Assembly (NCBI GenBank): GCA_045649505.1
Contig: JAZRQA010000061.1
Location: 7,235-71,234 of the forward strand
DNA: 64,000 nucleotides
Reading direction: 5' to 3'
Origin: Acutalibacteraceae bacterium
GTDB taxonomy: Bacteria; Bacillota; Clostridia; Oscillospirales; Acutalibacteraceae
The translations under genes were made by a program, and so were the position numbers. Positions within the stretch are counted from its first letter, which is position 1. Every line of letters starts with the position of its first letter. Below the pieces are notes generated by a model that saw only the letters and a list, made by a program, of their open reading frames with translations, ran no database searches and had not been told where the DNA came from. Positions 11,337-59,506 of the stretch are shown here, in pieces.

Positions 11337-11349
11337 GAGGAGAATTTCA

Positions 11350-16256: not shown

Positions 16257-16275
16257 AACTATTTTTCTCCAATTT

Positions 16276-34527: not shown

Positions 34528-34796
34528 TTGTCTCACCTCCTGTGTAGTGATTATAATGAATATAGGTTGGTGAAAAAGCGCACTTGCGCTTTTTCACGGA
34601 CAAATTTTTAATTTGTCCGTGAAATTATAAAAATAATTTCACCTATTTCATTGCAATGATGTCGGCGTAAATAATCAAGGATTATTTACATAAAACCGCT
34701 ATGTGTAGCGGTTTTTCGAAAAACCTTTATTTGAAAGCTTTTCGACTACCGATTATCATTATAAAAACGTATATTGATTTTTCGGAGGAAAAAACT

Positions 34797-36080: not shown

Positions 36081-36105
36081 AAATAATTTTTAACGAGGTA
36101 ATATA

Positions 36106-37023
36106 ATGCCTATTAAAATACCGAACGACCTCCCTGCAGTACAAACGCTGTTGGACGAAAATATTTTTGCCATAACCGAAACAAGGGCAATTACTCAGGA
36201 TATTCGTCCCCTTAAAATTCTGCTTCTCAATCTTATGCCTAAGAAGATAGAAACCGAGACCCAGATTTGCAGAATTTTGGGTAACACCCCCTTACAGATA
36301 GAGTTAACCCTTATCCGCACAAGCACCCACGAGGGTAAAAACACCTCAAAGGAACATCTTCTTGCGTTTTATAAGACCTTCGAGGATGTAAAACACGAAA
36401 ACTTTGACGGTATGATAATCACGGGCGCGCCCGTTGAGCAGCTTGAATTTGAACAGGTCGATTACTGGGATGAGCTTTGCACTATTATGGATTGGAGCAC
36501 CACTCATGTGCACAGTACAATGCACATTTGTTGGGGTGCACAGGCAGGTCTTTACCACCATTTTGGAATAAAAAAGCATCCCCTTGACAAAAAACTTTTC
36601 GGGGTATTTGCGCACAAATGCGAACACCCGAAATCTATGCTCCTTCGTGGCTTTGACAGCGTTTTTTACGTGCCCCACTCCCGTTATACCGAGGTAAGGC
36701 GCGAGGATATTCTTTCGTGTAAGGATTTAAAAATACTTGTTTCCTCACCTGAAGCAGGTGTGCATATTGTTGCCCAGAACGGCGGAAGAAGATTTTTTGT
36801 TATGGGTCACGCGGAATATGACCCCCTCACCCTTGATGCAGAATATAAGCGTGATGCCGCCGCGGGACTTGACACCGCAATCCCCAAAAATTACTATCCC
36901 GACAACGACCCCGATAAATTCCCCATTGTAAACTGGCGCGCACACGGAAGTCTTATTTTTATAAATTGGCTCAACTATTTTGTGTACCAGTCTACCCCCT
37001 ATGACCTAAAGGAAATAAAATAA
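36106..37023 (+). CDS. metA: Homoserine O-acyltransferase (MetA family)
   Basis: 305 aa. Motifs include [23 protein letters not shown] and ICWGAQA. Confidence 0.9.
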
Positions 37024-37041
37024 GAAATTTTTAAAAAGGTC

Positions 37042-37070
37042 TTGACAAACAAAAAGCACTGTGTTACAAT
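37042..37070 (+). promoter_or_regulatory. Sigma-A type promoter of T-box leader 1
   Basis: TTGACA, 17-nt spacer, TG-n-TACAAT. Confidence 0.65.
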
Positions 37071-37076
37071 ACGAAA

Positions 37077-37353
37077 AAATATAAAGGCAATGACGAAGAC
37101 GGTTTAGTTTTTCGGTTTTCAGAGAATCGGCGGTTGGTGCAAGCCGATAACCTACAAACTTTGTAACCCATCCCTTCCGAGCCGGAGGTAAAAAAGGCGT
37201 TTCGCTTAGTAGATATCTCCCGTGATTGCTGCGTAAAGGCATAGGAATTGTAAGATTCCGAGAGTGGCAGTTTTTACTGCAATTTGAGTGGTACCGCGGA
37301 TGTGAATTATCACACTCGTCTCAAAGAAATTGAGACGGGTGTTTTTTATTTTT
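37077..37353 (+). promoter_or_regulatory. T-box riboswitch leader 1 (specifier read as AUC, Ile)
   Basis: Stem I has a GA motif (AATGA..GA), an AGAGA bay and a GGTGCAA distal loop. T-box core is AATTTGAGTGGTACCGCGG (37281-37298). Terminator spans 37312-37340 with a T-run. ATC at 37170-37172 lies just 5' of the lower helix. Confidence 0.9.
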
Positions 37354-37378
37354 TAACCTGTCGAAAGGTGTGAGAAAA

Positions 37379-39646
37379 ATGTCAACAGTAGAAAATAAAA
37401 AATTATTAGAGGTGGCGGCGCGTATTCGCGAAATGCGCGAAATCTGCTCGCTTAGTACCGAAGAAATGGCCGAAAAGACCGAGGTCAGCGTAGCCGAATA
37501 CGAGGCTTATGAGGCAGGAAAACAGGATTTCCCCTTTACCTTTATTCATAAATGCGCCCTTGCCTTTAACCTTGGAATTTCCGACCTGCTTGAGGGCCAC
37601 AGCGCCAACCTTTCCTCTTATACCGTTACCCGCAAAGGGCAAGGACAGGAGACAGCCAAGGAGGAAGGAATAAGTATTCAGAACTTGGCTCCCCTTTTCA
37701 GAAAGAAAATTGCCGAGCCTTATTGGGTACGCTATGACTATGACGAAAGTCTTCAAAACAAGCCTATTCATCTGACCAAGCATTCAGGTCAGGAGTTTGA
37801 CTTTGTTATGAGCGGTCGACTTAAAATTCAAATCGGTGATAATATTGAATATTTAAGCGAGGGTGACAGCATTTATTATAACTCCTCCACCCCTCACGGT
37901 ATGATAGCCGTTGACGGCAAAGAGTGTCTTTTTGTTGCCGTTGTTCTTCCCGGTGAGGATGAAAGCGAGCCCGCCGCAAGAAATACCATTATGTCGATGC
38001 ACACCTCCACCAAAAGGCTTGTGAGCGATGAATTTATCACCACGGCGGAGAACGAAAAGGGTTATCTTGAAAAGATTGACTTTAAAAATGAAGACCGCTT
38101 TAACTTTGCCTTTGATGTGGTTGATGCCATTGCAAAGAAGGACCCCGAAAAGCTTGCTATGCTTCATCTTGATAAAAACAAGGTGGAACGCCGCTTTACC
38201 TTTAATGATATGAAGCGCGCCTCTAACCAGTGCGCCAACTACTTTAAATCCCTCGGTATCAAAAAGGGTGACAAGGTTATGCTTGTACTCAAGCGTCATT
38301 ATCAGTTCTGGTATGCAATTCTTGCTCTGCACAAGCTTGGCGCAATAGCTATTCCTGCAACAAATCAGCTTGTTGCTCACGATTTTGAGTACCGCTTTAA
38401 CAGCGCCGATGTTAGCGCCATTGTTTGTACTGCTGACGGCGATGTTGCAAATCAGGTAGATTTAGCCCAGAGCACAAGCGCGACCTTAAAGACCAAGATC
38501 CTTGTGGGTGGCGAAAAAGAGGGCTGGCATAATTTTGATGAGGAATATCCTCTGTATTCAGCCCACTACTATCGTGATGAAAATACCGCCTGTGGTGATG
38601 ACCTTATGCTGATGTTCTTTACATCAGGCACCACAGGCTATCCAAAAATTGCCGCGCACAGCTATAAATATGCTTTAGGGCATTACATAACTGCAAAATA
38701 CTGGCACGGCGTGAGTGAAGGCGGACTTCATTTTACAATCTCAGAAACAGGTTGGGGCAAAGCCCTTTGGGGCAAGCTTTACGGACAATGGCTGTGCGAG
38801 GGAGCGGTGTTTACCTATGACTTTGACCGCTTCGCCGCAAGTGATATTTTGCCTATGTTCGCAAAATATAATATAACCACATTCTGCGCGCCCCCAACAA
38901 TGCTTAGAATGATGATAAAAGAGGATATCTCAAGGTATGACCTTTCCTCCATAAAGCATATGACCACTGCAGGTGAGGCTTTAAACCCTGAGGTTTACCG
39001 TCAGTTCGAAAAGGCAACGGGGCTTCAGATAATGGAAGGCTTCGGTCAGACCGAGCTTACCCTTGTTATTGCAAACCTTATGGGCGGCTCTCACAAGCTT
39101 GGCTCAATGGGAAAACCTACTCCCCTTTATGATGTTGATATTCTTGATCCTGACGGTAATCCAGTTGAGGACGGTGAAACAGGCGAAATTGTTGTTAAGA
39201 CAAGTGATAAGGTGCCCTGTGGACTGTTCAGCGGATATTACAAAAATCAAGAAAAAACCGACGAGGTATGGCACGACGGCTATTACCACACAGGAGATAC
39301 CGCCTGGCGTGATGAGGACGGATTCATCTGGTATGTGGGCAGAGTTGATGATGTTATCAAATCTTCGGGTTACCGTATAGGACCCTTTGAGATTGAAAGC
39401 GTTATAATGGAATTGCCTTATGTCCTTGAATGCGGCGTTTGCGCGGCACCTGATGAGGTGCGTGGTCAGGTAGTTAAGGCAAGCATTGTTCTGGTTAAGG
39501 GCACGAAAGAGTCCGATGAACTTAAAAAAGAGATACAGGATTATGTTAAGAATCACACTGCGCCCTATAAGTATCCGCGTATTGTTGAGTTCAGGGAGTC
39601 TTTGCCTAAGACGATAAGCGGTAAAATTCAGCGAAACAAGCTTTAA
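37379..39646 (+). CDS. XRE-HTH + cupin + medium-chain (ACSM/MACS-like) AMP-forming acyl-CoA synthetase fusion
   Basis: HTH_3 at aa ~10-72. Cupin at aa ~80-190 (GQEFDFVMSG..GDSIYYNSSTPHGM). Ligase from nt ~38090 (FNFAFDVVD, FFTSGTTGYPK, YHTGD, GYRIGPFEIE, SGKIQRNKL). Confidence 0.85.
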   Translation: MSTVENKKLLEVAARIREMREICSLSTEEMAEKTEVSVAEYEAYEAGKQDFPFTFIHKCALAFNLGISDLLEGHSANLSSYTVTRKGQGQETAKEEGISIQNLAPLFRKKIAEPYWVRYDYDESLQNKPIHLTKHSGQEFDFVMSGRLKIQIGDNIEYLSEGDSIYYNSSTPHGMIAVDGKECLFVAVVLPGEDESEPAARNTIMSMHTSTKRLVSDEFITTAENEKGYLEKIDFKNEDRFNFAFDVVDAIAKKDPEKLAMLHLDKNKVERRFTFNDMKRASNQCANYFKSLGIKKGDKVMLVLKRHYQFWYAILALHKLGAIAIPATNQLVAHDFEYRFNSADVSAIVCTADGDVANQVDLAQSTSATLKTKILVGGEKEGWHNFDEEYPLYSAHYYRDENTACGDDLMLMFFTSGTTGYPKIAAHSYKYALGHYITAKYWHGVSEGGLHFTISETGWGKALWGKLYGQWLCEGAVFTYDFDRFAASDILPMFAKYNITTFCAPPTMLRMMIKEDISRYDLSSIKHMTTAGEALNPEVYRQFEKATGLQIMEGFGQTELTLVIANLMGGSHKLGSMGKPTPLYDVDILDPDGNPVEDGETGEIVVKTSDKVPCGLFSGYYKNQEKTDEVWHDGYYHTGDTAWRDEDGFIWYVGRVDDVIKSSGYRIGPFEIESVIMELPYVLECGVCAAPDEVRGQVVKASIVLVKGTKESDELKKEIQDYVKNHTAPYKYPRIVEFRESLPKTISGKIQRNKL

Positions 39647-39662
39647 TTTTAATAAAAAAGTA

Positions 39663-39692
39663 TTGACACAAAGCCCACACTTATGATAAAAT
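39663..39692 (+). promoter_or_regulatory. Sigma-A type promoter of T-box leader 2
   Basis: TTGACA, 18-nt spacer, TG-n-TAAAAT. Confidence 0.55.
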
Positions 39693-39698
39693 ACTATA

Positions 39699-39996
39699 AA
39701 AATTGATAAAGGCTTTGACGAAGAGGGCATAATTTACCCCCTTGCCTTACAGAGAGATGGCGTTTGGTGCAAGCCATTGGCAAGAAATTATGTTTGTAGC
39801 TTCCGAGTCGGGAGAAAGAAAGGGGCGGCTTGCTCTGAGTAGAATCTTCCCGTGATTGCTGCGTAAAGGCATAGGAATTGTCAGATTCCGAGAGGGGCAG
39901 TTTTAAACTGCAATTTGAGTGGTACCGCGGGTCAACTGAAACTTTTCAGCGCTCGTCTCAAAGTCATAACTTTGGGACGGGTGTTTTTTTCGTCCC
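39699..39996 (+). promoter_or_regulatory. T-box riboswitch leader 2 (specifier read as GUA, Val)
   Basis: Same architecture as leader 1. Has AGAGAG, GGTGCAA, core AATTTGAGTGGTACCGCGG (39912-39930) and a terminator at 39952-39990. GTA at 39796-39798 is followed by G and then the CTTC lower helix. Confidence 0.9.
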
Positions 39997-40014
39997 GGGA
40001 AATGGAGAAAATGT

Positions 40015-42306
40015 ATGGAACAAATTACAGGGCTTGATTTTAAAATCAAGGAAATGGCGTCCCGTATCAGGGAGCTTCGAGAGCTTGAGGGCTTAACCAC
40101 CGCCCAGATGGCTTTGAAAACCGATATTAGCGAAGGTGAATATATAGAGTGTGAGTCGGGCAAAAAGGATTTGAACTTTGCCTTTATTTATCGTTGTGCA
40201 ATGGCGTTGAGCGTTAATGTTACCGATATTATCGAAGGTCACTCTCCTACACTTAAATCCTATACCGTTACCCGCTTCGGCGCAGGTCAGAAGGTTTCAC
40301 AGGCTCACGGTATGACCTATTATAACCTTGCTTATGCTTTCCGCGACAGAATAGCCGAGCCTCTTTATGTTCGCAGTGTTTACGACGAGAATGCCGAAAA
40401 CACAAAGGATATTGAGCTTACCACCCACGCAGGTCAGGAGTGCGACCTGATTATCGAGGGTAATCTTATGGTTCAGATTGGTGAGCACAGGGAGATTTTG
40501 GGCCCAGGTGACAGCATCTATTTTGATTCTGACACACCTCACGGTATGATAGCCGTTGGCGGTAAAGACTGTATTTTTTATGCCATTGTTCTTAATCCCA
40601 CAGGTGAGCCTATACCCGAGCTTACCACAAGGCAGGCGGTGAGAGAAAATCACAACGCCAAAAGAGATACCAAGAACCGTATATATAAAAAGTATATTGA
40701 TGTAGTTGAGAATGAAAACGGAACGCCTACCTCTATCACCTTTAAGAATACCGAGAAGTTCAACTTTGCTTTTGACCTTGTTGATGCTTTAAGCGAGCGC
40801 GAGCCTGAAAAAATGGCAATGTTGCACATTTCCCGAGATGGTGATGAGCGCCGTTTTACCTTTAAGGATATGAAAAAAGCAAGTGCCCAATGCGCTAACT
40901 ACTTTAAATCCCTCGGCATTAAAAAGGGCGACAGAGTTATGCTTATTTTAAAGCGTCACTATCAATTTTGGTTTGCAATGCTGGGTCTTAATAAGCTTGG
41001 CGCAATAGCTATTCCCGCACCTAATCAGCTTTTGGACCATGACCTTGAATACCGATTTAATGCGGCAGGGATTGACACAGTTATCTGCACCGCTGACGGT
41101 GATGTTGCAAGACAGGTAGATATTGCCGCCGCTAAATGCGATACAATACGTAATAAACTTATTGTAAACGGAAGCAGAGAGGGCTGGCGCAGTTTTGACG
41201 ATGAGTACACCCTTTTCAGTTCCCATTTTGAGCGTAATGAGGACTCACCCTGCGGTGATGACCCGATGCTTATGTTCTTTACCTCGGGTACTACGGGATA
41301 TCCCAAGATTGCAACCCATAACCACAAATATCCGCTGGGACACTTCCACACCGCCAAATACTGGCACGACGTTGACCCTGACGGACTGCACTTTACCATC
41401 TCGGATACGGGCTGGGCTAAGGCAATGTGGGGCAAGCTTTACGGACAGTGGCTGTGCGAGGCGGCAACCTTTGTTTATGACTTTGACCGCTTTGATGCGG
41501 CAGAAATTCTGCCCATGTTTGCAAAGCATAAGATAACCACCTTCTGCGCGCCGCCCACAATGCTTCGTATGATGATAAAGCAGGATATTTCAAAATATGA
41601 TTTCTCCTCTGTTAAGCATATGACCACTGCAGGTGAGGCTTTAAATCCTGAGGTATACCGTCAGTTTGAAAAGGCAACGGGACTGCAGATTATTGAAGGC
41701 TTCGGTCAGACCGAAAGCACTATGATTATAGGTAATATGGTTGGTGCTTCCCATAAAATCGGTTCAATGGGCAAACCTGCCCCTATTTATAATGTTAAGA
41801 TTGTTGACCCCGAAGGTAATGAGGTTGCCGTAGGCGAAACTGGTGAAATTGTTGTTGATATTTCAAACGGCGCGCCCTGTGGACTCTTTACAGGCTACTA
41901 CCGTGACGAGGCCAAAACAAAAGAGGTTTGGCATGACGGCTTCTATCATACGGGAGATACCGCCTGGAAGGATGAGGACGGCTTCTTCTGGTATGTTGGC
42001 CGTGTAGATGACGTTATCAAGTCCTCAGGCTACCGCATTGGTCCCTTTGAAATTGAAAGCGTTATTATGGAATTACCTTATGTTCTTGAATGCGGCGTTT
42101 GCGCCGCACCCGATGAAGTGCGCGGTCAGGTAGTTAAGGCAAGCATTGTTCTTGTTGATGGCACCGAGGGTACTGATGAACTTAAAAAAGAGATACAAGA
42201 GTATGTTAAAAAGCATACTGCGCCCTACAAATATCCGCGAATCGTTGTATTTAAGGATTCTCTGCCCAAGACGGTAAGCGGAAAGATACAAAGGAACAAG
42301 CTTTAA
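40015..42306 (+). CDS. XRE-HTH + cupin + medium-chain AMP-forming acyl-CoA synthetase fusion (paralogue of 37379..39646)
   Basis: Same three-part architecture. HTH-cupin module spans nt 40015-40596 and the ligase starts at ~40753. The C-terminal ~90 aa are nearly identical to the upstream paralogue. Confidence 0.85.
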   Translation: MEQITGLDFKIKEMASRIRELRELEGLTTAQMALKTDISEGEYIECESGKKDLNFAFIYRCAMALSVNVTDIIEGHSPTLKSYTVTRFGAGQKVSQAHGMTYYNLAYAFRDRIAEPLYVRSVYDENAENTKDIELTTHAGQECDLIIEGNLMVQIGEHREILGPGDSIYFDSDTPHGMIAVGGKDCIFYAIVLNPTGEPIPELTTRQAVRENHNAKRDTKNRIYKKYIDVVENENGTPTSITFKNTEKFNFAFDLVDALSEREPEKMAMLHISRDGDERRFTFKDMKKASAQCANYFKSLGIKKGDRVMLILKRHYQFWFAMLGLNKLGAIAIPAPNQLLDHDLEYRFNAAGIDTVICTADGDVARQVDIAAAKCDTIRNKLIVNGSREGWRSFDDEYTLFSSHFERNEDSPCGDDPMLMFFTSGTTGYPKIATHNHKYPLGHFHTAKYWHDVDPDGLHFTISDTGWAKAMWGKLYGQWLCEAATFVYDFDRFDAAEILPMFAKHKITTFCAPPTMLRMMIKQDISKYDFSSVKHMTTAGEALNPEVYRQFEKATGLQIIEGFGQTESTMIIGNMVGASHKIGSMGKPAPIYNVKIVDPEGNEVAVGETGEIVVDISNGAPCGLFTGYYRDEAKTKEVWHDGFYHTGDTAWKDEDGFFWYVGRVDDVIKSSGYRIGPFEIESVIMELPYVLECGVCAAPDEVRGQVVKASIVLVDGTEGTDELKKEIQEYVKKHTAPYKYPRIVVFKDSLPKTVSGKIQRNKL

Positions 42307-42971
42307 TGAAGGAATTTAAACGTTTAACTTTACTTTGCGGGCATTACGGCAGCGGCAAAACAAATGTTGCGGTTAATGTTGCATTTGAGCTTAAAAAAGT
42401 GTATAATAATGTAGCCGTTGCGGATTTGGATATAGTTAACCCCTATTTTCGCGCAAAGGATTCCCGTAAGGATTTTGAGCACAAGGGCATTCGCCTTATC
42501 TGCTCGGAATATGCCAACACAAATGTTGACATTCCTGCCTTACCCGCGGATATCTACACCATTACGGTAGACAAAAGCATGTACACCGTACTTGATATCG
42601 GCGGCGATGACCGCGGCGCCTACGCCCTTGGAAGAATTGCTGATGATATTAAGGCGGAAGACAACTACGAGATGCTTATGGTAATAAACCGCTACCGTCC
42701 GCTTACCCCCGACGCGCAAAGCACTCTCGAGGTTATGCGGGAAATTGAGGCGGCGTGCAAAATCCCCTTTACGGGACTTGTTAATAATTCAAACCTCGGT
42801 GAGCTTACCGCGGCAAGCGATGTGCTTGAAAGCATACTCTATGCAAATGAGGTGTCAAGGCTTTCGGGGCTACCCGTGGTTATGACAACGGTAAATGAAA
42901 AACTGTATTGTGAGCTTGAGGACAGGGTGGAGAATTTATTTCCCCTTACTCTGCAATCCAAGTTGATATAA
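42306..42971 (+). CDS. P-loop NTPase of unknown function (SIMIBI/MinD-CooC-like)
   Basis: 221 aa. N-terminal GHYGSGKTN Walker A, hydrophobic strand plus DIGGDD as a Walker-B-like element. TAATG overlap with the ligase stop. Confidence 0.5.
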   Translation: MKEFKRLTLLCGHYGSGKTNVAVNVAFELKKVYNNVAVADLDIVNPYFRAKDSRKDFEHKGIRLICSEYANTNVDIPALPADIYTITVDKSMYTVLDIGGDDRGAYALGRIADDIKAEDNYEMLMVINRYRPLTPDAQSTLEVMREIEAACKIPFTGLVNNSNLGELTAASDVLESILYANEVSRLSGLPVVMTTVNEKLYCELEDRVENLFPLTLQSKLI

Positions 42972-42988
42972 TTTAAGGAGCGATGAAT

Positions 42989-43195
42989 ATGGCAAAGCTT
43001 ACATTTAAAACAGACCTTTGTAAGGGCTGCGGGCTGTGTGTTGATGCCTGCCCGAAAAATCTGCTGTGTCTGGCACCCGATAAGATAAATAAAAAGGGTC
43101 ACCACCCAGTGGAAATAACCGATCAGAATGCCTGTATTGGCTGCGCTTTTTGCGCTACTATGTGCCCTGATTGCATTATTAAGGTAGAAAGGTAG
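42989..43195 (+). CDS. 2x[4Fe-4S] ferredoxin (delta subunit of 2-oxoacid:ferredoxin oxidoreductase)
   Basis: CKGCGLCVDACP and CIGCAFCATMCP motifs. GGAG lies 9 nt upstream of ATG 42989. Confidence 0.85.
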   Translation: MAKLTFKTDLCKGCGLCVDACPKNLLCLAPDKINKKGHHPVEITDQNACIGCAFCATMCPDCIIKVER

Positions 43196-43206
43196 GGAAA
43201 AAGGAT

Positions 43207-44274
43207 ATGTCTGATAAGGTACTTATGAAGGGCAATGAAGCCATTGCGGAAGCCGCTATTATTGCAGGCTGCCGACACTATTTCGGCTATCCCATTACTC
43301 CCCAAACCGAAATCGCCGCATATATGGCAAAAAAAATGCCTAAAATAGGCGGAACATTTTTACAGGCAGAAAGTGAAATTGCCGCAATAAATATGGTCTA
43401 CGGCGTTTCCTCTACGGGTAAACGCGTTATGACATCATCCTCAAGTCCGGGTATTGCGCTTAAGAGCGAGGGACTTTCCTATCTCGCAGGCGCAGACCTT
43501 CCCGCACTTGTTGTAAATGTTCAGCGCGGCGGCCCCGGTCTTGGCGGTATTCAGCCCAGTCAGTCTGATTATTTTCAGGCTACCCGTGCAGGCGGTCACG
43601 GTGATTTCCGTATGATTGTTCTTGCCCCCGCATCCGTTCAGGAGATGGCAGAGCTTACCGTTAAGGGCTTTGAGCTTGCGGATACATACAGAATGACTTC
43701 TATGATACTTGCTGACGGTACAATGGGTCAGATGATGGAGCCCGTTTCCCTTGACCTTGAGGTTGCTCCCGCTCCCGAAAAGCCTTGGGCTACTACAGGC
43801 ACCAAGGGGATACGCCCCCACAATATTGTAAATTCACTTTTCCTTGCTCCCGAAGAGCTTGAGAAGTTTAATTTTGACCGTTTTGAGCGTTATAAATACA
43901 TTGAAGAAAACGAAGCAATGTATGAGGAATATATGATGGAGGATGCCGAAATTTGCATAGCTGCCTTCGGTATTGCCGCCCGTGTTTCTAAAAACGCTAT
44001 AAACGAGGCAAGAAAGCAGGGTATTAAGGTTGGTATGATTAGACCTATTACCCTTTGGCCCTTCCCTAACGCCCCATTTGAAAAAGCTGCAGATAAGGTA
44101 AATTCGATTATATGCGTTGAGCTTTCAATGGGTCAGATGATCGAGGATGTACGCCTTGCCACACACTGCAAGGTTGACGTAACCCTTTGCAACCGTGTAG
44201 GCGGTATGATACCCTCTCCCGAACAGGTGCTTGAGGCTATAAAAGTGGCGGCTAAAAACGGAGGTGCAAAATAA
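43207..44274 (+). CDS. 2-oxoacid:ferredoxin oxidoreductase alpha subunit (VOR/KOR type)
   Basis: 355 aa. Motifs MKGNEAIAEAAI.AGCR.YFGYPITPQ and QAESEIAAINM are typical of the four-subunit OFOR alpha subunit. Confidence 0.85.
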   Translation: MSDKVLMKGNEAIAEAAIIAGCRHYFGYPITPQTEIAAYMAKKMPKIGGTFLQAESEIAAINMVYGVSSTGKRVMTSSSSPGIALKSEGLSYLAGADLPALVVNVQRGGPGLGGIQPSQSDYFQATRAGGHGDFRMIVLAPASVQEMAELTVKGFELADTYRMTSMILADGTMGQMMEPVSLDLEVAPAPEKPWATTGTKGIRPHNIVNSLFLAPEELEKFNFDRFERYKYIEENEAMYEEYMMEDAEICIAAFGIAARVSKNAINEARKQGIKVGMIRPITLWPFPNAPFEKAADKVNSIICVELSMGQMIEDVRLATHCKVDVTLCNRVGGMIPSPEQVLEAIKVAAKNGGAK

Positions 44275-45029
44275 TGGTAGTTTTTGATAAACCTAAGGCT
44301 TTAACAGATGTGCCTATGCACTACTGCCCCGGTTGCACACACGGTATTGTTCACCGCCTTGTTGCCGAGGTTATTGATGAGCTCCAAATTGAGGGCAAGA
44401 CCATTGGTATTGCGCCTGTTGGTTGCTCTGTTATGGCTTATAACTATTTTAACTGTGATATGATTGAAGCAGCTCACGGACGCGCTCCTGCAGTTGCTAC
44501 GGGCGTTAAGCGTTCCGACCCTGACAACCACATCGTGTTTACATATCAGGGTGACGGTGACCTTGCTTCAATCGGTATGGCTGAAACCGTGCATAGCGCG
44601 GCAAGAAACGAGAACATCACCGTTATATTCATTAACAACGCAATTTACGGTATGACAGGCGGTCAGATGGCACCTACCTCTCTGCCCGGTCAGGTTACTC
44701 AAACCTCACCCTATGGCCGTGATGTAAAGCAATGCGGTTACCCCGTTAAGGTTTGCGAAATGCTTAGCGAGCTTGAGGGTCCCGAATATCTTGAGCGCGT
44801 TACCGTAAACAATGTTAAGAATATTAAAAACGCCAAGAAGGCTATAAAGAAGGCCTTCCAGAATCAGATAGACGGCAAGGGCTTCTCCCTTGTAGAGGTA
44901 GTTTCGACCTGTCCCACCAACTGGGGTATGACTCCGCAGAAGGCACTCAAATGGATAGATGACAATATGCTGCCCTACTATCCTTTGGGCGTTTATAAAG
45001 ACCGTTCTGCCCAAAAGGAGGAGAAATAA
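44274..45029 (+). CDS. 2-oxoacid:ferredoxin oxidoreductase beta subunit (TPP-binding)
   Basis: YCPGCTHG cluster/TPP region and GDGD..NNAIYGMTGGQ motif. ATG overlaps the alpha stop. Confidence 0.85.
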   Translation: MVVFDKPKALTDVPMHYCPGCTHGIVHRLVAEVIDELQIEGKTIGIAPVGCSVMAYNYFNCDMIEAAHGRAPAVATGVKRSDPDNHIVFTYQGDGDLASIGMAETVHSAARNENITVIFINNAIYGMTGGQMAPTSLPGQVTQTSPYGRDVKQCGYPVKVCEMLSELEGPEYLERVTVNNVKNIKNAKKAIKKAFQNQIDGKGFSLVEVVSTCPTNWGMTPQKALKWIDDNMLPYYPLGVYKDRSAQKEEK

Positions 45030-45568
45030 TGAGTACCAAAAATTTTCTGTTTTCCGGTTTCGGTGGTCAGGGTATTCTCTTTGCAGGTAAGTTCCTTGCC
45101 TACAAGGGTCTGTATGAAGGTAAAAATGTAAGCTGGCTGCCCTCCTACGGCCCCGAAATGCGCGGCGGTACCGCAAGCTGCTCGGTTATTGTAAGCGAAG
45201 AAGCAGTTGGCTCGCCGATAGTATCAAACCCCGATATTCTGGTTGCAATGAATCTGCCCAGCCTTGATAAATTTGAAAATGATATTGTATCAGGCGGTCT
45301 TGTGTTTGCCGATTCCGCTCTTATTGAGCGCAAGGTAAACCGTGACGATATTACCGCTTATTACATTCCTGCAACCCGTCTTGCAGGTGAAAACGGTATG
45401 CCCACGCTTGCTAATATGATTATTATGGGCAAGATTTTAAAGGTGCTCGGCGAGTATGATGAGGAAAGCCTTAAAGCTACAATGGCAAAGGTTATCCCCC
45501 CGAAGCACGCAGATATGCTTGAAGTAAACCTTAAGGCACTTAAAATCGGTGCCAATTATGAGGAGTAA
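45029..45568 (+). CDS. 2-oxoacid:ferredoxin oxidoreductase gamma subunit
   Basis: 179 aa. GFGGQGILFAGK motif. ATG overlaps the beta stop. Confidence 0.85.
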   Translation: MSTKNFLFSGFGGQGILFAGKFLAYKGLYEGKNVSWLPSYGPEMRGGTASCSVIVSEEAVGSPIVSNPDILVAMNLPSLDKFENDIVSGGLVFADSALIERKVNRDDITAYYIPATRLAGENGMPTLANMIIMGKILKVLGEYDEESLKATMAKVIPPKHADMLEVNLKALKIGANYEE

Positions 45569-45573
45569 TTAAA

Positions 45574-46635
45574 ATGGAAATTTCTATTACAAAAACAACT
45601 GCGCCCAAGGTTAAGCCCGAGGCTTCAACCCTTGGTTTTGGTAAATTCTTTACCGACCATATGTTTATGATGGACTTCTCCCGCGAGGAAGGTTGGCACG
45701 ATGCAAGAATTATCCCCTTTGCCAACATCTCTTTGCACCCTGCCTCCACCGTACTACACTACGGCTCCGAAATATTTGAGGGCTTAAAAGCCTACCGTCG
45801 CGCAGACGGCAAGGTTCAATTGTTCAGACCTATGGAAAACATCCGCAGAATGAACAACTCTGCTGACAGACTTTGTCTGCCTCAGATTCCTGAGGATATG
45901 GCCCTTGAGGTATTAACTAAATTTGTAGAGCTTGAGCAGGATTGGACGCCCAGCGCAGAGGGTACCTCCCTCTATCTTCGTCCCTTTATGTTCGGCAATG
46001 ACGAATCCCTCGGTGTTCACGCCGTTCATAACGCAACCTTTGTTATAATAGCTTCCCCTGTTGGCAGCTATTATAAAGAGGGTATAAACCCTGTCAAGAT
46101 TATGATTGAGGATGAGGATGTCCGTGCGGTACGCGGCGGTACAGGTTATGCCAAATGCGGCGGTAACTATGCCGCATCCAACCGTGCAGGTGAGCGTGCC
46201 GAGCAAAAGGGTTATTCTCAGGTGCTCTGGCTTGACGGTGTTGAGCGTAAATATATTGAGGAGGTTGGCGCCATGAACGTTATGTTCAAAATCGGCGGCG
46301 AGGTTATCACTCCTATGCTTTCAGGCTCCATTCTCCCCGGTATTACAAGAAAGTCCTGTATTGAGGTTCTTAAAAAGGCGGGCTACACCGTAAGCGAGCG
46401 ACTGCTCAGCATTGATGAGCTTGCCGCCGCTATGGAAAACGGTACCCTTGAGGAGGCATGGGGTTGCGGTACTGCCGCAGTTGTTTCCCCCATTGGCGAG
46501 CTTTGCTACAAGGATAAGAAATACACCGTTAATAACGGTGAGATAGGCAAGGTTACCCAGATGCTTTACGATACCTTGACAGGTATTCAGTGGGGTAAAA
46601 TTGAGGACACATTTAATTGGACCTACGAGATATAA
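45574..46635 (+). CDS. ilvE: Branched-chain amino acid aminotransferase (class IV PLP, long form)
   Basis: 353 aa. Motifs include FTDHMF, HYGSEIFEGLKAY, KCGGNYAAS and ILPGITR. Confidence 0.9.
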   Translation: MEISITKTTAPKVKPEASTLGFGKFFTDHMFMMDFSREEGWHDARIIPFANISLHPASTVLHYGSEIFEGLKAYRRADGKVQLFRPMENIRRMNNSADRLCLPQIPEDMALEVLTKFVELEQDWTPSAEGTSLYLRPFMFGNDESLGVHAVHNATFVIIASPVGSYYKEGINPVKIMIEDEDVRAVRGGTGYAKCGGNYAASNRAGERAEQKGYSQVLWLDGVERKYIEEVGAMNVMFKIGGEVITPMLSGSILPGITRKSCIEVLKKAGYTVSERLLSIDELAAAMENGTLEEAWGCGTAAVVSPIGELCYKDKKYTVNNGEIGKVTQMLYDTLTGIQWGKIEDTFNWTYEI

Positions 46636-46639
46636 TCTT

Positions 46640-46675
46640 AAAACCCTTTTGTTTGCGCAAAAGGGTTTTTCTTTT
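46640..46675 (+). terminator. Intrinsic terminator ending the ligase-VOR-ilvE operon
   Basis: AAAACCCTTTT-N8-AAAAGGGTTTT followed by a T-rich run. Confidence 0.8.
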
Positions 46676-46684
46676 AAAAAGATG

Positions 46685-46713
46685 TTGACAAATAATTTCA
46701 CTTATGATATAAT
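46685..46713 (+). promoter_or_regulatory. Sigma-A type promoter of T-box leader 3
   Basis: TTGACA, 17-nt spacer, TG-n-TATAAT. Confidence 0.65.
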
Positions 46714-46719
46714 ACATAA

Positions 46720-46992
46720 AAATTTTTGAAATGCTATGAAGGAATTATTTTTGATTCTCCCCTTCCTTTCAGAGAGCTGCTGTTTGGTGCAAGGCGGTAG
46801 GAAGCGAACCGAAAAGTCTCATTCCGGAGCAGAGCGGCTGAAAATTAAGTTAAGCTGCTACGGTTTGCCCCGTTATCTTGGCAGAAGGCTTGTTAGAGCC
46901 TTAGTGAGTGACCGTGTTATACGGTAATCAGGGTGGTACCGCGAATTATTATTCGTCCCTGAGGTTGGATGTCCCGGCCTCAGGGACTTTTT
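46720..46992 (+). promoter_or_regulatory. T-box riboswitch leader 3 (specifier read as CUC, Leu)
   Basis: GA motif (TATGA..GGA), AGAGAG, GGTGCAA, core AATCAGGGTGGTACCGCG (46926-46943). Terminator is GTCCCTGAGG-N13-CCTCAGGGAC plus T5 (46955-46992). CTC at 46818-46820 is followed by A and then the TTCC lower helix. Confidence 0.9.
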
Positions 46993-47031
46993 ATGTGGTA
47001 AAAAAATTAGCGCGAAAGGTCGAAGAAAGAA

Positions 47032-48411
47032 ATGCAAAAAATCAAAATTATTGACAACACTCTTGCAAGAGAAAACGGCACTTTTTCTTTTAAGGAAAAA
47101 ATTGAGATTGCCCGTCAGCTTGAAAAATTAAATGTCGACACCATTGAACTTAGCGAAATTGAGAATGAGCACACCGATATTCTTCTTGTGCGCACCCTTT
47201 CTTCATTTGTTAAAAACAGTACCGTTTCGGTTGGAGCAGGCTCCGATGCAAAGAGTATTGAAAACGCCGCAGCTGCTCTTAGCGGCACTAATAATCCTTG
47301 TATCCGAATTGAGCTTCCCCTCTCCACTGTCGGTATGGAATATATCAGTCGCAAAAAGGCGCCTAAGATGCTCGAATGGATTAGCGAGTGCGTTACCGCC
47401 GCTAAGAAGAAGTGCAGCGAGGTTGAATTTTGCGCGGTAGACGCTACACGCGCCGATAAGGATTTTTTAATTACAGCCATTGACACTGCCGCCAAGGCGG
47501 GTGCAACAAGAATTTGTATTTGTGACAGCACAGGAAATATGATGCCTGATGATTTTGCCGCCTTTGCCAGCGAGGTTAAGGCAACTACAAATCTACCTGT
47601 AGGTGTAAAATGTAACAACAAAAACGGTCTTGCCGTTGCTCAGGCAATTCTCAGCGCAAGGCAGGGTATTGAATATGTTAAGGCGCAGGTAGGCTGTGAG
47701 GGTGTTGATCTTGAAATCTTTTCCGATATGGTTAAAAACTGCGGAAATGACTACGGCTTTTACTGCGATATAAAAACCACCGAGCTTCACAGGATAATTA
47801 ATCAGATTAAGTGGATTAGTGAAAATGCAAAAAGTGATAATTCGGCAATGCGCGTAGGCACAATTGAAGAATGGGGTATTCATCTTGATGCAAAGGATGA
47901 TATTGCCGCCGTTACCGCCGCCTCTAAAAAGCTTGGTTATGACCTTTCGGAGGAGGACTGTGCCAAGGTTTACGAAGAATTTTGCCGTGTTGCCGATAAA
48001 AAAGATGTAGGCGCTAAAGAGCTTGAAGCCATTATAGCAAGCGTTGCTTTGCAGGTGCCCGCCACCTATAAGCTTATAAACTATGTTGTAAACAGCGGTA
48101 ATATTATTTCTACAAGCGCACAGCTTACCTTAGAAAAGGACGGCAAGGAAATTCAGGGTGTACAGATGGGTGACGGTCCTATTGATGCCGCATTTAAAGC
48201 TATTGAGGGCATTATTGGCTGTCATTTTGAGCTTGATGATTTCCAAATTCAGTCGGTTACCGAGGGTAAGCAGGCACTTGGCAGTGCCATTGTTAAACTG
48301 CGTTCAAGCGGAAAGCTTTACTGCGGCAACGGTATCTCTACTGATATTATAGGAGCAAGTATTCGCGCATATATAAGCGCCGTTAATAAGATTGTTTACG
48401 AGGAGGCGTAA
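47032..48411 (+). CDS. 2-isopropylmalate/citramalate synthase homologue with degenerate active site and intact LeuA_dimer regulatory domain
   Basis: Aligns with LeuA over its full length. However, TLRDGEQ is replaced by TLARENG, HxHxxD by KCNNKNG, and GERAGN by GCEGVD. The C-terminal domain is conserved (GDGPIDAAFKAIE..SVTEG.QALG..V.L...G....G.G.STDII.AS..AY..A.NKI). Confidence 0.7.
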   Translation: MQKIKIIDNTLARENGTFSFKEKIEIARQLEKLNVDTIELSEIENEHTDILLVRTLSSFVKNSTVSVGAGSDAKSIENAAAALSGTNNPCIRIELPLSTVGMEYISRKKAPKMLEWISECVTAAKKKCSEVEFCAVDATRADKDFLITAIDTAAKAGATRICICDSTGNMMPDDFAAFASEVKATTNLPVGVKCNNKNGLAVAQAILSARQGIEYVKAQVGCEGVDLEIFSDMVKNCGNDYGFYCDIKTTELHRIINQIKWISENAKSDNSAMRVGTIEEWGIHLDAKDDIAAVTAASKKLGYDLSEEDCAKVYEEFCRVADKKDVGAKELEAIIASVALQVPATYKLINYVVNSGNIISTSAQLTLEKDGKEIQGVQMGDGPIDAAFKAIEGIIGCHFELDDFQIQSVTEGKQALGSAIVKLRSSGKLYCGNGISTDIIGASIRAYISAVNKIVYEEA

Positions 48412-48413
48412 AA

Positions 48414-50921
48414 ATGAAATTTTCCTTTTCAACAAAGGGTTGGCACGAAAGCACATTTGATGATTTCTGCCGTGTAGCACAGGAGCTGAAATTTGAAGGC
48501 ATTGAGCTGCACAACATTTATAACCGCCTCTTTACCGATAGGGACGGTGCTTTCCACGACTATACCGCCGCGGCTACTGTCCGCCGTCTTTATGAACGCA
48601 AGCTGACTCTTCCCTGTATTGACACCGTATGTAATATTGCCCGCGACGATATTGATTCCTGTTTAAAAGAAATCGGTGCCTGTGCTCAAATTGCAAAAAA
48701 TCTTCACATCCCCTGCATTCGTTTAAAGGCAACCGCTAATATCGGCGACCAAGATGCTACGCAACACCTTTGCGCAATTATAGAGAAGGCTCTACCCGAG
48801 GCAACCGATTTAGGTATTACCCTTTTACTTGAAACATCGGGTCTTTTTGCCGATACCAAGGCACTGCGTGTTATACTTGACAGCTTTGCAAGTGATAATT
48901 TAGCCGCTCTGTGGAATTTATCTGCCGCGTATTTTGAATTTGGAGAGGACGCCGACACCGTTATTAAGAACCTTGGTGCCTATGTACGCCATGTTCATTT
49001 CAGCGATGCGATAAAATCAGATGATGAGATAACCTACTGTCTTGCAGGCGAGGGCACGCTTCCCATAAAGGAAATGATGCTTGCTCTACGCTCGGTGAAC
49101 TATGATGGCTTTATCTCCCTTGTTTGGGACCCTACATGGTGCAGTGAACTCGACGATATGGAGATAATTTTCTCACAGTTTGTTAACTTTATGAAACAGT
49201 TTGCCGATACCTCCAGGAATGAGTCCACCCTTTATTACAACAGGGCGCATACGGGTAAGTATGTATGGAAAAAGGACCTGCTGATTGACGCCACCTTTTC
49301 ACAGGTGCTTGACCGTATGGTTGAGGAATTCCCCGACCAATATTGCTTTAAATACACAACCCTTGACTATACCCGTACCTATAGCGAGTTCAGAGATGAC
49401 GTTGACACCTTCGCCCGCGCTCTTATCAGTATGGGTGTTAAGGCGGGTAGCAAGGTTGCAGTTTGGGCGAGCAACGTACCGCAGTGGTATATTGCTTTTT
49501 GGGCAACCACAAAAATAGGCGCGATACTGGTTACCGTAAACACCGCCTATAAAATCCACGAGGCTGAATATCTGTTAAAGCAGTCTGATACACACACTCT
49601 GATTATGACGCAGGGTGCTAAGGACACCGATTACGGTAAAATAATAGCACGACTGTGCCCCGAACTTGAAAATTTAAAGGCGGGACAGTCACTGCACAGC
49701 AAAAAACTGCCCTTCCTGCGCAATGTTATAACAGTTGGATTTAGGCAAAGAGGCTGTATGACCTGGAGCGAAGCTGTTGCCCGTTCTTCGCAGGTGCCTG
49801 CCTCCGAGGTCTACCGTATGGCGGCCACCGTGGATAAGGACGATGTATGCAATATGCAGTACACATCGGGAACCACGGGATTCCCAAAGGGTGTTATGCT
49901 CACCCATTATAATGTTGTTAATAACGGCAAATATATCGGCGACCATATGGACCTTTCCACAGCCGACCGTATGATGATACAGGTGCCAATGTTCCACTGC
50001 TTCGGTATGGTACTTTCTATGACCGCAAGTATGACCCACGGTACAACAATGTATCCCCTGCCCTATTTCTCACCAGGGCCCGCGCTTTCCTGTGTGCACA
50101 ATGAGCATATCACCGCCTTTAACGGTGTTCCCACTATGTTTATTGCAATGATGCAGCACGCCGATTTTGCAAAAACCGATTTTTCGCATATGCGTGTTGG
50201 TATTATGGCAGGCTCAAACTGCCCTGCAGACCTTATGAAAAAGGCCACGCAGGTTATGAATATGACCGAAATCGTATCGGTTTACGGTCAGACCGAGGCT
50301 AGTCCGGGTTGCACTATGAGTAGCTACTACGATTCTCTTGAGGTGCGTACCGAAACTGTCGGAAGCGCTTTTGCCAATGTTGAGTGTAAGATAGTCGACC
50401 CCGAAACGGGCGAGGACTGCGATGTTGGTGTAACGGGTGAATTTGTCGCCAGGGGCTACAATATCATGAAGGGATATTACAAAATGCCCACCGCTACTGC
50501 CGAGGCTATTGATAAGGACGGTTGGCTCCATACAGGTGACCTTGCCTGTAAAACGGCTGAGGGAAACTATCTTATTACAGGCAGACTTAAGGATATGATA
50601 ATCCGCGGCGGCGAAAATATTTATCCTAAGGAGATAGAGGAGTTTATCTACACCAATAATAAGGTAAGCGACGTTCAGGTTATAGGCGTTCCCGACGAGC
50701 AGTACGGCGAGGAGATAATGGCGTGTATTATCCTTAAAAAGGGCGAAAGTATGACCGAGCAAGAGATGAGGGCATATATCTCCGCCAATATGGCAAGGCA
50801 CAAGGTGCCACGATATATTCAATTTATGGATAGTTTTCCGATGAATGCCGCAGGAAAGATTTTAAAATACAAAATGCGCGAGGATGCCGCACAGCGTTTA
50901 GGATTGAAGGCAGATAAATAA
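48414..50921 (+). CDS. Fusion of a xylose-isomerase-like TIM barrel (AP_endonuc_2) with a FadD/ACSF2-like AMP-forming acyl-CoA ligase
   Basis: TIM barrel at aa 1-~263 (FEGIELH, LLLETSG, YVRHVHFSD). Ligase at aa ~290-835 (QYTSGTTGFPKGVMLTH, YGQTE, WLHTGD, GRLKDMIIRGGENIYP, AGKILK). Confidence 0.8.
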   Translation: MKFSFSTKGWHESTFDDFCRVAQELKFEGIELHNIYNRLFTDRDGAFHDYTAAATVRRLYERKLTLPCIDTVCNIARDDIDSCLKEIGACAQIAKNLHIPCIRLKATANIGDQDATQHLCAIIEKALPEATDLGITLLLETSGLFADTKALRVILDSFASDNLAALWNLSAAYFEFGEDADTVIKNLGAYVRHVHFSDAIKSDDEITYCLAGEGTLPIKEMMLALRSVNYDGFISLVWDPTWCSELDDMEIIFSQFVNFMKQFADTSRNESTLYYNRAHTGKYVWKKDLLIDATFSQVLDRMVEEFPDQYCFKYTTLDYTRTYSEFRDDVDTFARALISMGVKAGSKVAVWASNVPQWYIAFWATTKIGAILVTVNTAYKIHEAEYLLKQSDTHTLIMTQGAKDTDYGKIIARLCPELENLKAGQSLHSKKLPFLRNVITVGFRQRGCMTWSEAVARSSQVPASEVYRMAATVDKDDVCNMQYTSGTTGFPKGVMLTHYNVVNNGKYIGDHMDLSTADRMMIQVPMFHCFGMVLSMTASMTHGTTMYPLPYFSPGPALSCVHNEHITAFNGVPTMFIAMMQHADFAKTDFSHMRVGIMAGSNCPADLMKKATQVMNMTEIVSVYGQTEASPGCTMSSYYDSLEVRTETVGSAFANVECKIVDPETGEDCDVGVTGEFVARGYNIMKGYYKMPTATAEAIDKDGWLHTGDLACKTAEGNYLITGRLKDMIIRGGENIYPKEIEEFIYTNNKVSDVQVIGVPDEQYGEEIMACIILKKGESMTEQEMRAYISANMARHKVPRYIQFMDSFPMNAAGKILKYKMREDAAQRLGLKADK

Positions 50922-51733
50922 TGGTACAGGACAAATATTTTGTTATAGATGCTCACTGCCATATTTATCCCCAAAAGATAGTGGAAAAGGCAGTAGCAGG
51001 TACCGATAACTTTTATGGTGTTAAGTCGGAATGCTACGGTACCTATACCGATTTAATAAACTGCGGCGCCGCGTGCGGGATTGACCTCTTTATAGTTCAG
51101 TCGGTTGCCACAACGCCGAAGCAGGTGCAAAGCATAAACGACTTCATTGCCGAGAGTGTTGCACAACATCCCCACAGGCTCACCGGTCTTGGTACCCTTC
51201 ACCCCGATAGCGAGGATATTGCGGGGGATGCGAAGCATATTCTTTCCCTTGGTCTTCACGGGGTAAAGATTCACCCAGACATTCAGCGTTTTGCTTTGGA
51301 TGATGAAAAATGTCTTGAAATGTATAGAGTTTGTGAGGAGTACGCTCTGCCTATGCTTATTCACACAGGGGATAACCGCTATGATTTTTCTAATCCCAAC
51401 CGTCTTATCCCCGTACTTCGCGCCTTCCCCCGTTTAACGGTGGTGGGCGCCCACTTTGGCGGATTTTCGGTGTGGCAGGAAGCGGCAGAAAAGCTTTACA
51501 AGATAGATAACTTTTTTGTTGATTGCTCCTCTACCTTTCCCTTTATCGGTGTGGATGCCGCAAGGCCTCTTGTAAGCAAATTTACCCCTGATAAAATTCT
51601 TTTCGGCACCGATTATCCTATGTGGGCACCCGATAAGGAGATTAAACGCTTTTTATCCCTTAATTTAAGTGAAAAAGACAACCAAAAAATATTCAGTGAA
51701 AATGCTAAAAAGGTGTATAGGCTCGATTTTTAA
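50921..51733 (+). CDS. Amidohydrolase_2-family TIM-barrel metal-dependent hydrolase/decarboxylase
   Basis: 270 aa. Motifs include IDAHCHIYP, GVKIHPD, HTG and LFGTDYPMW. ATG overlaps the upstream stop. Confidence 0.75.
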   Translation: MVQDKYFVIDAHCHIYPQKIVEKAVAGTDNFYGVKSECYGTYTDLINCGAACGIDLFIVQSVATTPKQVQSINDFIAESVAQHPHRLTGLGTLHPDSEDIAGDAKHILSLGLHGVKIHPDIQRFALDDEKCLEMYRVCEEYALPMLIHTGDNRYDFSNPNRLIPVLRAFPRLTVVGAHFGGFSVWQEAAEKLYKIDNFFVDCSSTFPFIGVDAARPLVSKFTPDKILFGTDYPMWAPDKEIKRFLSLNLSEKDNQKIFSENAKKVYRLDF

Positions 51734-51741
51734 AGAAAAAG

Positions 51742-51780
51742 CAGTGCATTATGAACGATTTCATAATGCACTGTTTTTTT
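51742..51780. terminator. Bidirectional terminator between convergent operons
   Basis: 13-bp perfect stem CAGTGCATTATGA / TCATAATGCACTG with a 6-nt loop and T7. Confidence 0.85.
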
Positions 51781-59487: not shown

Positions 59488-59506
59488 TTTTCGGGAGGAA
59501 AAAATT

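Follow-up and report, generated by a model that had tools for sequence, protein, structure and literature searches.

The window analysed here, 64,000 nucleotides (nt) of contig JAZRQA010000061.1 (assembly GCA_045649505.1) from an Acutalibacteraceae bacterium, contains a block of genes in which three T-box leader RNAs, with specifier codons for isoleucine, valine and leucine, precede transcription units encoding three AMP-forming acyl-coenzyme A (CoA) ligases, a VOR-type 2-oxoacid:ferredoxin oxidoreductase (OFOR) and the branched-chain aminotransferase IlvE (Table 1). The reading that best accommodates this arrangement, and that we consider probable, is that the block serves for the starvation-induced salvage of branched short-chain acids into branched-chain amino acids (BCAA). 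Under this scheme, uncharged tRNA-Ile, tRNA-Val or tRNA-Leu would pair with the respective specifier (AUC, GUA or CUC) and with the UGGU sequence of the antiterminator bulge, the antiterminator would be stabilised and RNA polymerase would read into the genes. The ligases, denoted lig1, lig2 and lig3, would then activate 2-methylbutyrate, isobutyrate and isovalerate, respectively, to the CoA thioesters, which VOR would reductively carboxylate to 2-oxoacids at the expense of reduced ferredoxin and CO2, and IlvE would transaminate the 2-oxoacids to Ile, Val and Leu. Uncharged cognate tRNA is the signal by which a T-box turns its genes on, so that the block fits the supply of amino acids rather than their breakdown. 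AMP-forming ligases release pyrophosphate and are effectively irreversible, and OFORs are reversible. For the leucine arm, there is a literature record that isovalerate is carboxylated to leucine in the rumen (PMC7356843).

All three leaders were recovered with the Rfam T-box covariance model RF00230, at the positions assigned to them in an earlier reading of the window that was made from the sequence alone (hereafter the sequence-only reading). The whole window was scanned at the curated Rfam thresholds, and the region 36900-40100 was rescanned more permissively; only leader 3 scores above the gathering score of the model (93 bits), and leaders 1 and 2 fall just under it with full-length alignments (1-219). 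In each of the three covariance-model alignments, the codon that immediately precedes the lower Stem I helix on its 5' side is the one previously identified by hand folding, that is, AUC, GUA and CUC, at the same coordinates. The other shared features described in the sequence-only reading are likewise present in the sequences and the folds: the promoters, the GA or kink-turn (K-turn) motif, the AGAGA motif, the GGUGCAA distal loop, the T-box core, which reads [A/G]GUGGUACCGCG, the UGGU bulge and the terminators with U-runs. Each leader can form an alternative antiterminator helix with a 7-nt bulge, UGGUACC, and the terminator overlaps the 3' strand of this antiterminator. The terminators are stable, with free energies of -19.3 kcal/mol (z -5.2), -24.1 kcal/mol (z -8.2) and -28.1 kcal/mol (z -7.0) in leaders 1, 2 and 3, respectively. 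Leaders 1 and 2 are nearly identical from Stem II through the T-box, from which we conclude that a unit consisting of a leader and a ligase gene was duplicated in tandem and that the specifier changed afterwards. The three T-box cores detected in the 64 kb by a regular-expression search all lie inside the ligase/VOR block; in particular, neither the Rfam scan at the gathering threshold nor the core-motif search revealed a T-box at serS (14985-16337), aspS (28081-29865) or hisS (29878-31185), all on the minus strand.

The specifier assignments are further supported by comparison of orthologous leaders. In a scan restricted to a single genome for each species, at least 543 relatives of the lig1/lig2 family were confirmed, and about 22 kb was examined around each of the best 80 of these together with three further contigs, 83 loci altogether. 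Within this set, a T-box core is found upstream of lig2 in 81 loci, upstream of lig1 in 53 and upstream of the gene for a LeuA-like protein, the first gene behind leader 3, in 29. We read the specifiers with a parser that uses the K-turn and the lower helix as anchors (all counts include the window). The codon is ATC in each of the 50 readable lig1 leaders, GTA in 77 and GTC in two of the lig2 leaders, and CTC in 22, CTG in four and CCC in one of the leaders of the LeuA-like gene, so that 26 of the 27 readable leaders of the last group are Leu-specific. Synonymous swaps in the third base that keep the amino acid are the behaviour predicted of a functional specifier, and Rfam structural alignments verify GUC in L013, CUG in L007 and both CUC and AUC in L045. 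The orthologous leaders score between 73 and 121.5 bits against RF00230. In an RNAalifold analysis of 35 leaders, compensatory changes occur in 16 of the 17 base pairs of Stem I, and the codon occupies fixed columns, 91-93. Two candidates that emerged from this comparison were discarded. An apparent Ala (GCN) specifier in five lig1 leaders turned out to be a false match to Stem II, the Rfam alignment of the leader from L045 giving AUC; and a Phe T-box in L023, considered as a sign of aromatic-acid salvage, precedes open reading frames of the size of pheS and pheT.

The genes of the block are arranged in three transcription units. The unit behind the Ile leader consists of a single gene, lig1. 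The unit behind the Val leader (40015-46635) comprises lig2 and the genes for a P-loop NTPase, a 2x[4Fe-4S] ferredoxin, the alpha, beta and gamma subunits of the OFOR and IlvE, a class IV aminotransferase; neighbouring genes either overlap or are 5-11 nt apart, and both the gene order and the junctions agree with those given in the sequence-only reading. The unit behind the Leu leader encodes, in this order, the LeuA-like protein, lig3, which is a fusion of a TIM barrel with a ligase, and an amidohydrolase. The statement that the first gene after every leader encodes an acyl-CoA ligase therefore fails at leader 3, where the LeuA-like gene (47032-48411) leads. No terminator was detected between lig1 and promoter P2, so that transcripts escaping leader 1 would enter leader 2. 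A perfect 12/12 match to the sigma-70 consensus inside ilvE, on the minus strand (46070-46097), is probably due to chance.

The ligases of the Ile and Val units are paralogues with 66% identity and the same domain architecture, in which an XRE-type helix-turn-helix (HTH) and a cupin domain precede the ligase proper. The best match of the catalytic part of lig1 in the PDB is MacsMa (3ETC, 632 bits), and the tryptophan of the acyl pocket of this enzyme (Trp259) is kept in both paralogues, with AKYWHGV in lig1 and AKYWHDV in lig2 compared to AKYWQNV in 3ETC. MacsMa, from Methanosarcina acetivorans, prefers 2-methylbutyrate, and its acyl pocket relies on an alternative tryptophan (PMC10455477). 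MbcS, the nearest named family, activates 2-methylbutyrate and isobutyrate and uses isovalerate poorly (PMC10026030). Taken together with the specifiers, these similarities lead us to predict that lig1 is a 2-methylbutyrate-CoA ligase and lig2 an isobutyrate-CoA ligase. Comparison of 53 lig1 and 83 lig2 orthologues revealed 16 positions that are fixed within each group and differ between the two, of which six are located in the ligase domain and ten in the HTH-cupin part. The group-specific residues of the ligase domain include glycine in lig1 versus alanine in lig2 (G460A) right after a conserved GW, and two positions that follow the GFGQTE motif, all in regions that we take to line the acyl pocket, as in acetyl-CoA synthetases. 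The smaller residue, glycine, is thus found in the ligase that is paired with the larger acid, which would fit the predicted substrates.

The N-terminal HTH-cupin module (about 240 amino acids; 37379-38110 in lig1 and 40015-40770 in lig2) was missed in the sequence-only reading. Its identity among orthologues, 63-74%, indicates that it evolves under selection. Free-standing relatives of about 185 amino acids and 33-41% identity are many, with 2291 matches at E<=1e-3 in a library of representatives at 50% identity, so that the module probably descends from an XRE-cupin regulator. The AlphaFold2 (AF2) model of the module is poor (predicted local distance difference test, pLDDT, 47.6) and is confident for the HTH only.

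The genes that would connect the acyl-CoA esters to the amino acids are all found in the Val unit. The OFOR possesses the complete four-subunit organisation (alpha, beta, gamma and delta); VorB is the model matched by its alpha subunit, and IlvE scores above the cutoffs of two models (Table 1). VorB is an annotation name, and both the specificity of the enzyme for branched 2-oxoacids and its operation in the carboxylating direction are presumed. The P-loop gene is located between lig2 and the ferredoxin gene in most of the fetched loci, and a search of the PDB found no relative of its product. The idea that this protein drives electron transfer at the expense of ATP was considered and dropped, because it contains four cysteines in 221 amino acids with no obvious NifH-like cluster, and in view of the missing PDB relative.

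The Leu unit is built differently. The product of its first gene has the domains of 2-isopropylmalate synthase (IPMS) and scores below the cutoffs of all NCBIfam LeuA models. We aligned this protein with the Listeria IPMS (3EWB) and with 34 orthologues, all of them full-length (454-471 amino acids). The RDGEQ motif, which contributes an arginine and an aspartate metal ligand, is deleted or variable in the window and in the orthologues; the HxH(D)D metal motif is changed from HCHDD to KCNNK in the window and consists of variable residues in the orthologues; the structural DATR motif is retained. The LeuA_dimer domain is nearly complete (PF08502, E 1.7e-31, positions 3-130 of 131), and the mean identity among orthologues is 73% in this domain versus 50% in the barrel. 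In a functional synthase, the barrel is expected to be better conserved than the regulatory domain. The loss of the metal motifs along with the stronger conservation of LeuA_dimer suggests a non-catalytic derivative that has been retained for its regulatory domain. Thus, by motif and model criteria, the LeuA-like protein is not a functional IPMS; hypothetically, it might be a leucine sensor or a partner acting on lig3.

The ligase of the Leu unit, lig3, is only 26% identical to lig1 and belongs to a different ligase family. A separate family for the Leu arm could be expected given that MbcS-type enzymes are poor on isovalerate, and lig3 is accordingly a candidate isovalerate-CoA ligase. It is 79-82% identical across many species. 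For its N-terminal domain, fold searches identify the generic superfamily only: the AF2 model (pLDDT 78) reaches TM-scores of 0.65-0.71 to ketose 3-epimerases, AsbF and Art22 at 12-19% identity. Within this domain, E140, H193, D198 and E245 are invariant and are presumed to be metal ligands, a designation made without a reference alignment. The amidohydrolase is not adjacent to the genes for the LeuA-like protein and lig3 in L029 and L063, and hence this pair appears to be the constant core of the unit. In its layout, the Leu arm does not merely repeat the Ile and Val arms a third time. Another Amidohydro_2-family gene (60675-61466) lies at a distance of 9 kb, downstream of the amidohydrolase gene of the Leu unit.

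The HTH-cupin modules and the regulatory domain of the LeuA-like protein could, hypothetically, be sensors of end products or substrates and form a second layer of control. In its full form, this idea envisages a two-layer system in which the T-boxes are complemented by one protein sensor per ligase, XRE-HTH/cupin in lig1 and lig2 and a leucine-binding LeuA pseudoenzyme for lig3, which would switch acid activation off through allosteric inhibition or through autoregulation at the DNA level, in response to the finished amino acid or the acid precursor. We present it as a speculative extension that is more likely wrong than right.

The block is syntenic across the species-representative genomes of gut and rumen Clostridia among the 83 loci. 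The most common gene order is lig1, lig2, P-loop NTPase, ferredoxin, VOR alpha, beta and gamma, and IlvE; in four loci (L029, L053, L068 and L069), ilvE precedes the P-loop gene. The pair encoding the LeuA-like protein and lig3 is found beside the VOR block, either downstream on the same strand or upstream in the divergent orientation. In L063, ilvE, the P-loop gene and those beyond follow immediately after the pair, linking it to the VOR route. The closest locus, L004, comes from a metagenome-assembled genome (MAG) of Acutalibacteraceae and shows 88-94% protein identity in the VOR block and 69% in the LeuA-like protein. Close relatives of both fusion ligases are very numerous, are annotated at most as 'AMP-binding protein' and come from MAGs of Clostridia, Oscillospiraceae, Acutalibacteraceae or Ruminococcaceae.

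Several observations weigh against the salvage reading. T-boxes usually have a purine after the specifier codon; this base is G in leader 2 and A in leader 3, but C in leader 1, and C is also found in 27 of the 50 readable lig1 leaders, the window included. The best NCBIfam model for lig1 and lig2, MbcS (NF047394), is matched with 445 and 442 bits, respectively, against a cutoff of 850, and lig3 stays below every NCBIfam cutoff, with 650.7 bits for NF009233 (cutoff 832). The ligase substrates are assigned solely by the specifier codons and homology, and they share the status of inference with the direction of the VOR reaction, induction by starvation and the roles of the HTH-cupin module, the LeuA-like protein, the TIM barrel, the P-loop protein and the amidohydrolase. 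The LeuA-like protein, the TIM barrel and the amidohydrolase are superfluous to a plain route from isovalerate to leucine. Among the orthologous leaders, a 121.5-bit T-box that precedes the genes for the LeuA-like protein and the TIM-ligase in L029 (1250-1494) carries CCC followed by A, a proline codon, and no T-box was found before this pair in L063. Furthermore, the Val leader is the only one of the three that controls transcription of VOR and IlvE, and starvation for Ile or Leu alone would therefore fail to induce them. The proposal of the sequence-only reading that each amino acid has its own switch and its own dedicated ligase is accordingly borne out in that each switch controls one ligase, but does not extend to VOR and IlvE. 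The core of the proposed salvage route, as previously formulated, nevertheless draws support from the specifiers, the kinship of the ligases with MacsMa and MbcS, the VorB and IlvE matches above the cutoffs and the synteny; the parts that fit less well are the layout of the Leu arm and the exclusive control of VOR and IlvE by the Val leader.

The principal alternative is that the ligases supply branched acyl-CoA primers for the branched-chain fatty acids of the membrane when BCAA are scarce, the synthesis of amino acids being secondary or absent. The demonstrated role of MbcS in Staphylococcus aureus is indeed primer supply, and mbcS is upregulated under BCAA limitation, the condition in which CodY loses its activity. 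In addition, lig1 stands alone behind its own leader, and some genomes have a lig2-type ligase on its own behind a Val T-box, VOR being absent from the vicinity (L031, L036, L056, L064-L067, L072, L074 and L075, and further L078, L079 and L081-L083, with no other block gene within the fetched stretch). However, lig2 shares a transcript with VOR and IlvE in most loci, and these two enzymes would be unnecessary for making primers from exogenous acids; a T-box senses the charging of tRNA and hence the demand of protein synthesis; and three switches specific for different amino acids exceed what primer supply would need. We therefore regard primer supply as the main function as unlikely, although it could coexist with amino-acid salvage. 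Still less credible, to the point of being highly improbable, is a catabolic block in which IlvE and VOR would oxidise BCAA to acyl-CoAs and the ligases would work in reverse or in fermentation. VOR-type OFORs are reversible and are oxidative in peptide-fermenting archaea, but induction by uncharged tRNA is the opposite of what degradation calls for, AMP-forming ligases are practically irreversible, and the usual ATP-conserving partners, ADP-forming synthetases and Ptb/Buk, are absent from the block.

The remaining alternative concerns the Leu unit, which might perform some other leucine-linked chemistry on an unidentified acid or be regulatory, leaving the path from ligase through VOR to IlvE to the Ile and Val arms. 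This possibility derives from the different family of lig3, from the invariant residues of the TIM domain and the retained ligands of the amidohydrolase, which suggest that both are active even though neither is required to convert isovalerate to leucine, and from the one orthologous leader with a proline codon. However, all other readable leaders of this group are Leu-specific; most of the fetched loci with the pair have it next to VOR and IlvE, in one orientation or the other, and in L063 it belongs to the same gene string as ilvE; the weak activity of MbcS-type enzymes on isovalerate makes a separate ligase expected; and the amidohydrolase is dispensable in some loci. We consider such a separate role of the Leu unit to be a real but minor possibility, with better chances than primer supply, and retain salvage into all three BCAA as the preferred interpretation.

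Table 1. Coordinates of the leaders, promoters, terminators and genes of the ligase/VOR block in the window
Feature	Positions	Strand	Remarks
Promoter P1	37042..37070	+	TTGACA, 17-nt spacer, TG-extended TACAAT; 11/12 consensus
T-box leader 1	37081..37353	+	RF00230 match 37081-37326, 90.3 bits, E 1.2e-19; specifier AUC (Ile) 37170-37172; T-box core 37287-37298; terminator 37312-37342, then U-run
lig1 (predicted 2-methylbutyrate-CoA ligase)	37379..39646	+	755 amino acids from ATG 37379 (likely start; mechanical open reading frame begins at GTG 37370); Pfam HTH_19 (XRE-type HTH), Cupin_2, AMP-binding, AMP-binding_C
Promoter P2	39663..39692	+	TTGACA, 18-nt spacer, TG-extended TAAAAT
T-box leader 2	39706..39996	+	RF00230 match 39706-39963, 83.1 bits, E 8.7e-18; specifier GUA (Val) 39796-39798; T-box core 39918-39929; terminator 39948-39985
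lig2 (predicted isobutyrate-CoA ligase)	40015..42306	+	lig1 paralogue, HTH-cupin-ligase architecture
P-loop NTPase	42306..42971	+	CbiA/ParA/MinD class, Walker A GHYGSGKT
Ferredoxin-like OFOR delta subunit	42983..43195	+	2x[4Fe-4S], Pfam Fer4 families; NCBIfam delta models below cutoffs
OFOR alpha (VorB in NCBI naming)	43207..44274	+	NF005507 536.5 bits (cutoff 399); Pfam POR_N, PFOR_II
OFOR beta, thiamine diphosphate-binding	44274..45029	+	Pfam TPP_enzyme_C; NCBIfam beta models below cutoffs
OFOR gamma	45029..45568	+	Pfam POR; equivalog cutoff not reached
IlvE, type II branched-chain aminotransferase	45574..46635	+	NF009897 488.8 bits (cutoff 307); TIGR01123 409.4 (cutoff 250)
Intrinsic terminator, end of Val-leader operon	46640..46669	+	-15.4 kcal/mol, z -4.5
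Promoter P3	46685..46713	+	TTGACA, 17-nt spacer, TG-extended TATAAT; 12/12 consensus
T-box leader 3	46727..46992	+	RF00230 match 46727-46963, 123.5 bits, E 6.7e-27; specifier CUC (Leu) 46818-46820; T-box core 46932-46943; terminator 46955-46987
LeuA-like protein (2-isopropylmalate-synthase homologue)	47032..48411	+	Pfam HMGL-like, LeuA_dimer
lig3 (predicted isovalerate-CoA ligase)	48414..50921	+	Xylose-isomerase-like TIM barrel (residues ~1-290) fused to AMP-forming acyl-CoA ligase; Pfam AP_endonuc_2 (E 3.8e-15), AMP-binding
Amidohydro_2-family metal hydrolase / decarboxylase-like protein	50921..51733	+	HxH, H, D metal ligands retained
Bidirectional terminator hairpin closing the block	51742..51773	both	-27.5 kcal/mol, z -9.0

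No ilv/leu genes of the de novo pathway are found in the window, the remainder of which is occupied by housekeeping, sporulation and cohesin genes and by metY-metA. The latter two genes, for O-acetylhomoserine sulfhydrylase and homoserine O-acetyltransferase (34701-37023), adjoin the block, as they do in L019, L037 and L043. At 7866-12864, a protein of 1156 amino acids that matches no Pfam family precedes one with a cohesin domain, a scaffoldin-like arrangement that resembles the amylosomes and cellulosomes of the Ruminococcus type. At 58285-60493, the gene for a protein with a CofE-like F420-0:gamma-glutamyl ligase domain overlaps the start of a GMP-synthase-C/NAD-synthase-like gene, a pair that is unusual for Clostridia.

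Many Firmicutes of the rumen and gut have been known since the 1960s to require isobutyrate, 2-methylbutyrate and isovalerate or to assimilate them. If the salvage reading is correct, the block would provide genes for this classical route in no fewer than 543 genomes at the species level, most of them from uncultured organisms, and the specifier codons would be ready predictions of the substrates of the three ligases. The block would then also be a marker of cross-feeding on products of protein fermentation, with neighbouring microbes as the source of the branched acids. In that case, genome-based predictions of auxotrophy might err in both directions, given that the LeuA-like protein resembles IPMS yet lacks its catalytic motifs and that a VOR route can replace ilv/leu. 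Beyond the pathway itself, the block offers two unusual protein architectures, the HTH-cupin-ligase fusion and the putative LeuA-derived pseudoenzyme. There is also a practical side, because branched volatile acids serve as feed additives and are markers of proteolysis in the gut.

The proposed chemistry is that of the rumen, where Allison and Bryant reportedly described the reductive carboxylation of branched-chain volatile fatty acids to BCAA, and of the anabolic VOR of methanogens, in both cases with a ferredoxin-dependent OFOR. The rumen work was physiological and enzymological; in the searchable literature, we found no gene cluster, dedicated ligases or regulation for the carboxylation of branched acids in the rumen. 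Each component of the block is of a known kind. What appears to be new is the combination, namely, three BCAA-specific T-boxes on ligases around VOR and IlvE, the two kinds of ligase fusion and the degenerate LeuA, of which we found no description in the searchable literature, many subscription papers lying outside it.

T-boxes before BCAA genes are well known, including the Leu-specific one of the Bacillus subtilis ilv-leu operon and others upstream of leuA (PMC2494555). The leaders of the block share with the known members of RF00230 the architecture, the logic of tRNA charging, the specificity for BCAA and the position before supply genes. They differ in what they control: instead of aminoacyl-tRNA synthetases, transporters or de novo ilv/leu genes, the targets here are acyl-CoA ligases, VOR and IlvE, and two broad surveys of T-boxes or regulatory RNAs list neither acyl-CoA ligases nor ferredoxin oxidoreductases among the targets. 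Similarly to MacsMa and MbcS, lig1 and lig2 are AMP-forming synthetases of the short/medium-chain type that keep the pocket tryptophan, and mbcS is likewise induced under BCAA limitation. Unlike these enzymes, the block has two specialised paralogues with an N-terminal HTH-cupin module, and compared to MbcS, a T-box takes the place of CodY, and VOR and IlvE take the place of primer supply to FabH. The LeuA-like protein, for its part, shares with LeuA the order of the domains, in which a TIM barrel comes first, then a linker subdomain and, at the C-terminus, LeuA_dimer, as well as Leu-specific control, but has lost the RDGEQ and HxH(D)D metal motifs of the synthase.

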